Assembly: GCA_965207735.1 (NCBI GenBank)
Contig: OZ242296.1
Location: 3,328,001 to 3,392,000 of the forward strand
Direction: 5' to 3'
DNA: 64,000 nucleotides
Source: Candidatus Versatilivorator sp.
GTDB taxonomy: Bacteria > Acidobacteriota > Terriglobia > Versatilivoradales > Versatilivoraceae
The notes beneath the pieces are model-generated. The model was not told the origin of the DNA. It was given only the letters and a program-made list of their open reading frames with translations, and searched no databases. The position numbers and the translations under genes are program-made. Each line of letters starts with the position of its first letter. The first letter of the stretch is position 1. Positions 24,122-51,515 of the stretch are shown piece by piece.

Positions 24122-24553
24122 CCTTCCCGCAAGTGATCACTGTGGAGGGAGCGACCCTGAAAACGAGGGGCGGAGAGGTGTCCGGAGGCCTGGCCACCTT
24201 TCGACCCGCTCGTGGCGCACCAGCGCCAAAAATAGGGTCGCTCCCTCCACTTCCTCCCCTCCCGTGTGGCGCCACGACCCGGCGTGCGAGGGGGTGGACA
24301 CGCGATGCCGGCGCCTCACGGGGCTATACCCCACAGGATTTGGGCAATCCGTGCCAACCCGCGTCCAGTGCGGGTGTCCGGGCACAGCCTGGACCACGAC
24401 GGCGAGGGCTTCGCCCTCTGAGAGTGGAGCGTTGGGGTTGTTGAAGGGACGCGCCACCTCATGCGCCACCTCCGTGCGCCACCCCCCCTTTGTAAGGTAG
24501 TCACCCATACGACGCCACGTCCTTGACCCCCGAAGGCGGAAATCGTCGATCAT
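24122..24553. other. Structured non-coding element, copy A (inverted relative to copy B)
   Basis: Perfect 17-bp stem 24142-24158/24234-24250 enclosing two hairpins; blocks homologous to 51097-51515. Confidence 0.7.
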
Positions 24554-25077
24554 GTCGCGGCCGTTGGAGGCCGGGTTTTCCTGCTCCCCTAGGACGATCT
24601 TCTCCATGACGACATCGAGGCTGGCGTGGCGTTCGACGGTGTCCTCCTGCACCCTGAATCCGCGAGCTTTGCCGGGCAGGCTGGACTTTCTCACTCCCTG
24701 GCATAGCAGAGCACCCCGAAACGCCTCCTGGACCGATTTCCCTCTCAGGGACCGCAGGTCCCGCCGCCTGTGGGGAATCCGGAATGGTCGGCTCGCTCAG
24801 CGCTGCCGTGGTCCCAGCCTGGTCGTCGAATCGTCCCGGTACGGCCACGAAGAGCCAGGGAAATCTGTTTTTTTCGGGCGGCATAAGGGATATGGCTAGT
24901 CCGGGCGGATGGCCAAAATGGGGGTAAAATCCCTCAAATCGGCCGTCTCGTTGTTAAAGATGGGCTAGCAAGGTTGGAGGGGGAATTCCAGGGAAGTGCC
25001 TGAAAAGTCTCGCAGCCCGCGTTTCGCGAGTCGTGCACGAGAACGACATCCTGAGTCTGGCCTAGCAGCTCGGCGCT

Positions 25078-26985
25078 TCAGTCTGCCGCGATCAGGTCAT
25101 ATTTCTTCAGCTTCCGATACAGGGTTGCGCGACCGAGACCCAGGGCTCGAGCCGCCTTGGTAACGTTGTTGGCCGAGACTTCCATCGCGTGGGTCAGCGC
25201 CTGCCTCTCGACTTCCGCCAGCGTGAGGACTGCCGTCGGCGCCGTGGGATCTCTTCGGATAGCTACAATCGGCGAGAGTTGCGGCGGGAGGTTGTTTACT
25301 TGCAGCACGTCCGACGTCTCCAGCAAAACGCCGCGCTCGATGGCGTTCTCCAGTTCACGAACGTTTCCGGGCCAATCGTACTGCAGCAACAATCGCAAGG
25401 CGGCGGTGGATATGCCGTTGGTGGTTTTACCGATGCGTCCGGTGTGTTTTTTCAGAAAATGTTTCGCCAGCAGGGGAATATCTTCACGACGTTCCCGGAG
25501 AGGCGGAATCACGATGGGGAAGACGGCAACACGATAGAACAGGTCCTCGCGGAAGGCGCCCTCCTTGACCGCAACCTCCAGATTCTTGTTGGAGGCTGCA
25601 ATCAGCCGGACGTCGACGGGGACGGTGGTGGTCCCACCCACCCGCTGGATCTCGCGCTCTTGCAGGACCCGCAACAGCTTGGCTTGCAGAGTCAGGGGCA
25701 TGTCGCCTATCTCGTCGAGAAAGACGGTTCCTCCCTTGGCTCGCTCGAATATGCCGATTCTTTGCTTCGTCGCCCCCGTGAAAGCTCCCAATTCGTGTCC
25801 AAACAGTTCGCTTTCAATGAGCGCCTCGGGAATAGCGGCGCAGTTGATGGCCAGAAACGGCGCCTTTTTTCTCAGGCTGTTGAAGTGAAAAGACTTTGCG
25901 ACCAGTTCCTTGCCGGTTCCGCTCTCGCCGCGAATGAGCACCGTAACATCGCTTTCGGCAGCCTGTTTCACCAGTGCGTACACTCGCTGCATCGGGGTGC
26001 TGGCGCCTACCATGCCGGAAAAGGAGTAGGTCGTCTCCAGTTCGGTGCGCAAGCGGAGCACTTCGGCCTTCATGCGCTCGACTTCGATCTCTTTGGACAC
26101 ATCGCGGTACACGTAAAGATCGCCGATGAGGTCTCCTTGACTATCATGCACCGGGGCGGTGGACCGATAGAACAGCCGCCGCCTGGGCACTCGACCCGAG
26201 GTGGCCGTTTCAATCACCTTCCCCTCCCGCTCGAAGAGGAATCCTCCCTCAACTTCGGGTAGATCAGGTTCTTGGAACCTCTCCTTGAATTTCTTCGCGA
26301 AGCCTTTCGGCGACATCCGCTTCAGTTCGCTTTTCGCCATGTCGATCACTTTCTCGTACCCGCGATTGGCAAACACCAGATTCCCGGTGTTGTCATACAT
26401 GGCCATAGCGTCACCGGTAGCATCCAGCACGGCTTCCAACCTTTGATGACTGATGGTCAGTTGCCGCCGTTTTTCCGCCAACTCCTGTTCGACGTTCCAC
26501 TTCCCGACCAGAGCAAGCGTAATCTGTTGAATTTCTTCGCGCGCGAAAGGCTTTCGGATGTAGAGCACTTTGTGAAGCAATTCCATGTCGTGAATAATCT
26601 CGGGCAGGGACCTGTCCGTATAGGCGGTCATGATGACAACCTCGATGTCACGATCGATCATTCTCACCTGACGGATTGTTTCAATCCCGTCGATACCCGG
26701 AGGCATTCTGATGTCCACAAAGGCGACGGCAATGGGACGGTCGGACTCCCTTCCGTTCTTGATGAGGTCGTAGCCTTCCTCTCCGCTGGTCGCGTGCAGG
26801 AGCTCGAACTCCGGCAGAAATACCTCTTTCCCCCGGGCTGTGAATGCTTCCGCCAGCTCATCCGTGGCCGCCTTCATAAGGCTGGGCTTCAACATTTCCA
26901 CAAAGTCGGCGTGGATTTCTTTCTGGTCATCCACGATCAGCACTCTACGGTTCGGGTGATCTCTGAATTCCATCAACTTCCTCAT
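25078..26985 (-). CDS. Sigma54-dependent activator: REC-PAS-AAA+-Fis HTH
   Basis: LIVDD...DIRMPPG receiver; [48 protein letters not shown]. Confidence 0.95.
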
Positions 26986-27068
26986 GTATGTTGCCTTTGG
27001 TAATGAACGGAAATGCCTGGCTGTAAGGGTTCGCGCCCGGGAAAACCGACTGGGAACAGACTTGGGAC

Positions 27069-50514: not shown

Positions 50515-50593
50515 AAGTAAAAAAAATTAAGTAAGTCCTTTTAAGGAAGCCACTTTGGATGTCGTGACCGCACAATGCTCAACTGACGCGAGC

Positions 50594-50723
50594 GTCTCAA
50601 CATGAGACTGTGATTCAACGACCTCGACGGCCTCTGTGGAAACAAGCCGCATGATTTCAGCTAGTTATAGGGAATTGGCAGGGGAGCGAGTCTCAATACT
50701 AAACCCAAGTCTCATCTTGAGAT
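50594..50723. promoter_or_regulatory. Candidate enhancer (UAS) palindromes for a sigma54 activator
   Basis: GTCTCA-ACA-TGAGAC (50594-50608), GTCTCA-TCT-TGAGAT (50709-50723), half site GTCTCA (50690). Confidence 0.65.
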
Positions 50724-51096
50724 ACTCGACGAGGCAGGAATCGACGGTAAAGAGAGACTCGACCAGCAGGAAAGGCTGGCAGGCTTGGCCAACTTGGTGA
50801 GCCGATATTGAAAATGGGGGGTTTCGACAGCGCGGTGATCCATGACAGGCTGCCGAAAAAAATCGGGGTTGTAGGGTATATGCCGATTCAAATTGTGCAG
50901 ACAATTTGCCAGACCCATGGTGTGTGCTATGAAGGCCGGGTGCCTACCCCTCCCGCGAATCCTGAATCACCCTTCCCTTGCCGACAGACGTGGCCATGTC
51001 ACTTTTTTGGCGCGTTGTATTGTGAGCAACCACACTGTTCCCCGCAGACGCGGCGATGAATCGGGGCAAGAAACGAACTCACTCGATGACCGTGGA

Positions 51097-51515
51097 ATGA
51101 TCGACGATTTCCGTCTCTGGGGGTCAAGCAGATGCCGTCGTATGGGTGAAACGGCTGCAACGTAGCGATGTTCACCCAGCCGTTTCATGATTTCCACACC
51201 CACAACGCCATTCTCTCAGAGAGCGGAGCCCTCGCCGTTGTGGTTGGCGACTTTCCCCAAACACCGCGTCAGACACGGGACAACAAGGATTGCCCGTATC
51301 GGATGAGACAAGGCGAAGCAAGGCTGCGCCTCGCGCGTCCCCCTCCCGCCCGGCGCGGCGGCGCGCCGCACGAGAGGGGAGAAGGTGGAGGGAGCGACCC
51401 CCATATTTTTTGCCGCTGGTGCGGCATCGGGGAGGGTTAGCCGTTTCACTTCACAGTTCACGGTTAACCCTCCCCTTGGGGGGTCGCGCCCTCCACAGTG
51501 ATCCCTTCGGGAAGG
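51097..51515. other. Structured non-coding element, copy B
   Basis: Outer stem 51385-51402/51479-51496; hairpins 51411-51426 and 51429-51475; homologous to reverse complement of 24122-24553. Confidence 0.7.

Follow-up and report, generated by a model that had tools for sequence, protein, structure and literature searches.

A putative origin of transfer in about fifty copies in the chromosome of a Candidatus Versatilivorator

What is the element of about 420 bp that occurs twice in opposite orientation, and a third time in part, in one stretch of an acidobacterial (Candidatus Versatilivorator) chromosome? We call this stretch of 64,000 nucleotides the window (G000:3328001-3392000, where G000 is this genome, other G numbers are the genomes of relatives, and L numbers are loci) and its three copies A, B, and C. 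The initial annotation had left the choice between a structured RNA and a DNA signal of mobile elements, such as an origin of transfer (oriT), and the second option fits the evidence presented here. We consider it likely that the element is the oriT of a MOBC-like conjugation system in a family of integrative conjugative elements (ICEs), and on the best reading this oriT is carried by full, mobilisable, and relic elements.

Copies of the element and its place in a virB operon

Copies A and B are 67% identical over 441 aligned columns (E 7e-28), and the shared blocks that had been listed for them follow each other in order in this alignment. The common fold of their 3' parts (an outer stem around a T-run and hairpins) is recovered as well, with 17-bp arms located in both copies, single-strand folds better than all 100 shuffles of each (z -7.3 for B and -4.3 for A), and the compensatory C/G swap of the short hairpin visible in both sequences. 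Copy C indeed keeps the arms and the tail, with arms of 14 bp (33503-33516/33573-33586) and the tail at 33591-33608. Three copies, however, proved to be a large underestimate: a profile built from A and B gave 113 matches in the genome, 48 of them near full length, and a second round gave 52 copies above 150 bits plus fragments, which puts the number of near-full copies at about 50, mosaic in the genome. Matches to the element are found in 13/13 genomes of the same genus and in 0/11 other genomes of the family, with weak matches in 4/16 other members of the class; viral contigs gave no match to the motif.

The place of the element in an intact setting is given by a complete conjugative element of the same chromosome (G000 1839.6-1862.6 kb), at the end of which defence-type genes follow. 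Its gene order is integrase, primase-helicase, virB3, B4, B9, B10, B5, B6, B8, open reading frame 2 (ORF2), the element, coupling protein, virB11, ArdC, and open reading frame 3 (ORF3). Integrase, VirB4, VirB6, VirB8-10, VirB11, and coupling protein thus lie together in one chromosomal element (G000 1839.6-1858.5 kb), as expected of a virB-type ICE resembling mating-pair formation type T (MPF-T), and the gap between ORF2 and the type IV coupling-protein gene of the virB operon is the element itself. Copy B is exactly the junction of ORF2 tail, element, and first 25 coupling-protein codons. The features of the three copies are as follows (window coordinates).

24122..24553, minus strand: copy A of the putative oriT region (alignment to B, genome profile)
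51097..51515, plus strand: copy B of the putative oriT region (alignment to A, genome profile)
33503..33608, plus strand: copy C, inverted-repeat module and terminal motif only, diverged further (sequence)
24142..24250, minus strand: inverted repeat of copy A, 17-bp arms (24234-24250 and 24142-24158) around a T-run, a short hairpin, and repeat cluster 2
51385..51496, plus strand: inverted repeat of copy B, 17-bp arms (51385-51401 and 51480-51496)
24122..24140, minus strand: terminal motif of copy A, a variant of ATCCCTGCGGGAAGG; candidate nick region and integrase target
51498..51515, plus strand: terminal motif of copy B; candidate nick region
24451..24502, minus strand: repeat cluster 1 of copy A, one degenerate inverted and three direct GGTGGCGC units, period 12-13 bp
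51147..51187, plus strand: repeat cluster 1 of copy B, inverted TGAAACGG, direct ATGTTCAC and CCGTTTCA
24482..24643, minus strand: 3' tail of ORF2 (residues 271-324, 54% identical), entering copy A
51094..51147, plus strand: 3' tail of ORF2 (residues 300-317, 94% identical), copy B
51521..51595, plus strand: first 25 codons of a type IV coupling-protein gene (76% identical to the intact gene in G000)
24040..24141, minus strand: remnant of a small gene that comes after the element in the putative mobilisable derivatives; predicted ribbon-helix-helix, weak NikA-like match (E 0.14)

The other copies in the genome carry similar gene ends. The block structure proposed initially holds with one correction, in that the first block is protein-coding: the ORF2 tail is in frame in 46 of the 51 copies with a complete 5' end, and homology extends at least 10 codons further 5' in 39. 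The head of the coupling-protein gene is kept in 11/47 copies, and the small gene with the weak NikA-like match stands 3' of the element in 17/47. ORF2 is intact at five places in the genome, and the order integrase, ORF2, element recurs at four loci. We infer that such three-part units are mobilisable derivatives and that copies A, B, and C are relics retaining only the cis site.

The arrangement extends beyond this genome. The coupling protein lies 3' of ORF2 in 31 of 61 ORF2 loci from other genomes, including records titled Deltaproteobacteria and Gemmatimonadota, and between the two genes the inverted repeat and terminal motif are found by pattern in 25 of the 31 and by profile in 3, with 3 lacking them. 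Of 30 loci drawn from all over the phylum, 12 match the terminal motif with at most three mismatches. In eight distant acidobacterial loci, chosen for having the coupling protein 3' of ORF2, all intergenic regions (8/8) keep an AGCGACC/GGTCGCT core, the terminal motif is lost, and ORF3 lies directly 5' of ORF2 in seven. A non-coding site near relaxosome and coupling-protein genes, as expected of an oriT, is seen in 28/31 loci and in 8/8 distant loci, with ORF2 and ORF3 as candidate relaxosome genes.

Several of these loci have peculiarities of their own. In distant elements a conserved ORF of 74-93 aa with no Pfam family, possibly an accessory DNA-binding protein, lies between inverted repeat and coupling protein (L225:6933-7211, L226:11293-11538, L239:1706-1927), and in L109 and L121 a long tandem array of a ~22-base unit separates ORF2 from the inverted repeat. 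At L093:5281-6290, a sequence starting GTGCG, a start that we take to resemble the 5' end of a group II intron, breaks the terminal motif and shifts the coupling-protein gene by ~700 bp. G000 itself has a second, broken virB operon (2777.8-2789.8 kb) with insertion sequence (IS) insertions, in which virB8 is followed by virB11 without ORF2, element, or coupling protein.

Candidate relaxosome proteins

ORF2 is a protein of 315-331 aa with 1,988 homologs in one search and 2,191 representatives in another, and it is present in 48/401 sampled Acidobacteriota genomes. Searches in Pfam, NCBIfam, PHROGs, PDB sequences, and Foldseek returned nothing significant; a protein atlas returned only unnamed acidobacterial clusters and a lead scored 0.86 to DUF5697, and PF13814 (Replic_Relax) matched none of the ORF2 queries and was not among the 25 of 43 families listed. 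The predicted model (predicted template-modelling score 0.74) combines a winged helix with a restriction-endonuclease-like domain, its best match being SdaI (Z 8.0, root-mean-square deviation 3.8, 117 aligned), with further matches to NucS (Z 7.0), BstEII, and Mrr-like domains. Despite this PD-(D/E)XK-type fold at Z 7-8, ORF2 lacks the acidic P-D...E pattern. Its recognition helix is the most variable segment of the protein (1.74 bits vs 0.5-0.7 in the core), and by eye similar recognition helices are often paired with similar repeat units in the element.

ORF3 (G000 1861807-1862571), encoded by the same conjugative element, is likewise a winged-helix protein; it is found in 19/29 genomes searched and has invariant residues H101, D102, P176, D177, E195, and Y201 among 61 homologs. 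Compared as profiles, ORF2 and ORF3 match with 20% probability and in the winged helix only, which in both predicted proteins is N-terminal, as in MOBC relaxases. The 18-residue spacing from D to E in ORF3 presumably equals that of TraX. Neither protein reaches the Pfam relaxase cut-off tested, and such elements are therefore likely to be scored as lacking a relaxase.

A review describes MOBC relaxases as PD-(D/E)XK-related; in TraX, according to the same text, the winged helix is N-terminal, and the protein binds five direct repeats that lie 70-120 bp away from the nick (PMC12857230). Taken together, ORF3 is the likely catalyst and ORF2 its likely binding partner, although ORF2 may alternatively be the relaxase itself. 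Transfer would then begin with the winged helix of ORF2, as specificity partner of ORF3, binding the short variable repeats; a MOBC-like nuclease, most likely ORF3 with its P-D...E motif, would nick one strand in or beside the fixed core of the inverted repeat, and the coupling protein would hand the nicked strand to the type IV channel. Relic islands may survive because their oriT would let them hitch on a helper element.

A number of observations weigh against an oriT served by these proteins. In four loci (L113, L114, L228, L229) ORF2 and the coupling protein adjoin each other, and the stretch read contains no inverted repeat. A motif-first metagenome scan found ORF2 upstream in 10/43 partly redundant loci (~300-460 bp 5' and on the same strand) and the coupling protein in 0/43. 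In G000 the element is 3' of ORF2 and 6 kb from ORF3, whereas the usual place of an oriT is 5' of the relaxase. ORF2 has no family match in Pfam or NCBIfam, and its fold scores, though consistent, are middling. Its pairing with the repeats is tentative, since the correlation between recognition helix and repeat similarity is not significant once overall identity is controlled for (partial rho 0.09, 243/2000 permutations). ORF3 stays below the cut-off of Replic_Relax (best 22.9 bits vs 25.3), with sub-threshold matches in 2/16 proteins (E 0.002-0.0075), a lax level at which 9/14 control genomes also give matches; fold searches returned only winged-helix matches for ORF3 and none for its C-terminal domain.

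Integrase targeting and rival explanations

Following the ORF2 tail, the element contains a unit of 7-9 bases in one inverted and two to three direct copies, and the sequence of this unit changes from variant to variant. This upstream unit is found again ~250 bp on, inside the inverted repeat (in copy B at 51441-51461), in 10/14 coupling-protein loci compared with 17/164 foreign comparisons, and in the remaining loci, many of them mosaic, in 7/21 compared with 39/290; these counts come from an anchored repeat finder that gave no motif in 11/46 loci and rely on a crude division into ICEs and integrative mobilisable elements (IMEs). The anchored finder replaced an earlier automatic one with noisy output (13/33 own vs 168/952 foreign). 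An inverted repeat thus stands beside a conserved short motif and repeats of a predicted protein-binding type, the composition expected of an oriT.

The terminal motif is also an integrase target. Five integrases of one subfamily have its right half ~150 bp 5' of the start of the integrase match, while five copies in G000 and three in relatives break off within the motif and run into an attachment-site (att)-like arm; the five left ends and eight right ends have in common a 9-bp core of the motif, TCCCT(G/T)(C/T)GG. At G000 1013.8-1016.8 kb such an integrase element separates another copy from its usual 3' flank, and copy A is preceded by the same att arm sequence. Judging from these junctions, one integrase subfamily inserts into the terminal motif of the element. 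Most G000 copies have an extra base in the terminal motif (exact canonical matches number 4 in G000 vs 20 in G005 and 27 in G011), and this base falls inside the integrase target core.

A more elaborate proposal, which we offer as speculation and would not expect to hold in full, is that the Acidobacteriota possess an undescribed two-protein relaxosome. It would consist of a MOBC-like nuclease responsible for catalysis (ORF3) and a similar but catalytically dead protein (ORF2), which would use its hypervariable recognition helix to read a swappable oriT address of 7 bases; islands with only ORF2 and the address would plug into any helper, a dedicated integrase family would parasitise the nick site, and the one-base insertions of G000 may be an escape from it.

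Could the element instead act as RNA, as a leader or attenuator of the coupling-protein gene or as a small RNA from the opposite strand? Its position 5' of that gene and the strong single-strand folding of A and B would suit such a role, as would real compensatory changes at outer stem positions, one pair being A-T in 59, T-A in 29, C-G in 25, and G-C in 9 of 135 distinct modules (about a dozen possibly anchored on the wrong strand). Across the same modules, however, the 7-8 bp core of the stem is 96-99% invariant, wobble pairs are scarce, with a bias towards the minus strand (18 G-T vs 43 A-C on the plus strand) and no plus-strand G-T enrichment, and the enclosed length between the arms ranges from ~10 to 130 nt. 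The whole-length consensus fold is sparse, with two pair types in only 13 of about 50 consensus pairs, the downstream gene is lost in most copies, and Rfam gave no match to the element at the gathering threshold or at E 1, so that the structured RNA named as one option at the outset is poorly supported and, in our estimate, improbable. For the stem, a hairpin or cruciform of DNA whose core is read by a protein fits better than RNA, because the core is invariant, the outer changes are compensatory, and the wobbles are few and minus-biased.

A replication origin is the least improbable of the rivals, though still unlikely: ORF2 would be an initiator that binds iteron-like repeats through its winged helix and maintains the circle after excision, with the true oriT near ORF3. 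The element does lie directly 3' of ORF2 with direct repeats, units of integrase, ORF2, and element occur without ORF3, the full element encodes a primase-helicase, and the Pfam family nearest ORF3 is named replication-relaxation. Yet across the phylum ORF2 is embedded in the virB operon, with virB8 on one side and the coupling protein on the other, a search of 72,556 plasmid records gave no match to ORF2, the region is rich in GC and lacks an AT-rich tract for unwinding, and about 50 chromosomal relic copies would be easier to explain as transfer sites. Slightly less probable even than an RNA is that the element is primarily a recombination site of P4-like integrases with the repeats as arm-type binding sites. 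The suggested link to integrases is real, pieces of P4-like tyrosine integrases lying within 0.3, 1.5, and 5 kb of 22, 36, and 42 of the 52 copies, compared with 1.7, 3.6, and 8.2% of random positions; in addition, the repeats of 12-13-bp period resemble those in att arms, and the terminal motif is where one integrase subfamily recombines. Against this, in intact elements the element is mid-operon and 14 kb from their own integrase, it occurs with ORF2 also in loci without a nearby integrase, and the att core comprises the last 9 bp only, and as a target.

Other candidates were set aside. The flanks of near-full copies run on into ORF2, coupling-protein, ribbon-helix-helix-like, or att sequence and show no terminal repeats, unlike an IS end or a miniature inverted-repeat transposable element (MITE), in which terminal inverted repeats with target duplications would surround the whole unit. 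Bridge-RNA, retron, and group I/II intron were dropped, as was the MITE, after the operon context emerged, and one 151-base contig from a presumed-RNA run was counted as no evidence of expression.

The host island and related systems

The genes that flank the island around the three copies are adjacent in G008, which places the copies inside the ends of this island. The copies had been taken for the boundary of this island as an inverted pair, but its ends lie ~650 and ~300 bp outside them; an outward-facing arrangement is common in the genome (13/25 neighbouring copy pairs). The window holds no tRNA target site, and most copy clusters are distant from tRNAs. Copy B had rightly been placed beside an integrase remnant, with 128 bp between it and the convergent C-terminal piece. 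The remaining features are these.

about 23470..51810, no strand: island with all three copies, absent in G008 (empty-site comparison)
24858..24879, minus strand: relic of the att arm region known from the right end of oriT-targeting integrase elements
51643..51795, minus strand: P4-like tyrosine integrase, C-terminal remnant
51035..51063, plus strand: solitary CRISPR-repeat-like sequence, ~60 bp 5' of copy B

The last of these is one of 13 solitary CRISPR-repeat-like sequences in G000, which we take to be of type I-E; none is part of an array, and 10 of the 13 sit ~60 bp 5' of an element copy, directly before the ORF2 tail, where they may represent either a repeat-spacer junction that was captured or an RNA anti-CRISPR. 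At the left end of the island (window 23464-23730) lies a highly repeated intergenic module, with dozens of matches per relative, and a match to Acido-Lenti-1 RNA. The cargo includes a sigma-54 response regulator and, by eye, a multi-PAS histidine kinase (window 25078-33500), with a high-GC GAF-PAS kinase-regulator fusion adjoining copy C in the same interval, and a repeat-rich protein of 5,434 aa (window 34138-50442, minus strand) that is probably exported and has, by eye, an autotransporter-like C-terminus. In G002 the corresponding position (L042, G002:694000-708500) is occupied by another island, 13 kb long, that carries genes for SNF2 helicase, DndB-HEPN, radical SAM, and HATPase as well as a remnant of an integrase; the spot is an insertion hotspot.

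Conjugation systems of Acidobacteriota are called unstudied in a 2012 survey (PMC3548315). Among openly accessible papers we found none under the host genus name and none that describes the element; oriT tables in supplements could bear on novelty. The present analysis supplies a candidate oriT, two candidate relaxosome families, and a marker by which dozens of mobilisable islands can be recognised in each genome of sponge-type symbionts. With these, gene flow among such uncultured bacteria becomes testable, and a mobilisation cassette for the phylum could follow.

The closest known system is that of MOBC, represented by oriT/TraX of pAD1 from Enterococcus faecalis and by MobC of CloDF13. According to PMC12857230, PMC5587640, and PMC5704250, it too has a winged-helix, restriction-enzyme-like protein beside a VirD4-type coupling protein and direct repeats apart from an inverted-repeat region, and the domain plan of the ORF2 model is that of TraX as given in the review (PMC12857230). 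It differs in that two such proteins are found here, the site-adjacent one lacking the acidic pattern, that no curated MOBC family score is reached, and that the host is an acidobacterium with a virB-type channel. In their mode of life the islands resemble the iOriT and iMOB genomic islands described for six nosocomial species (bioRxiv 10.64898/2026.01.13.699239) and the mobilisable genomic islands and cis-mobilisable elements of PMC5704250, integrase islands with an oriT only or an oriT and one mobilisation gene that outnumber their helpers; in the bioRxiv survey a chromosome carries up to nine integrative elements, compared with about 50 copies of the element here. Insertion of one integrative element into the oriT of another also has a precedent in IME_oriT of Streptococcus agalactiae, which, according to PMC5704250, integrates at one specific place, the conserved nic site within the oriT of another element. 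Here the target is a putative nic site of another sequence, in another phylum, and the enzyme belongs to the P4-like tyrosine integrases and has an arm-binding domain. Elements of this kind are already known, and what is new are the families of proteins, the large number of copies, and the integrase that targets the putative oriT.

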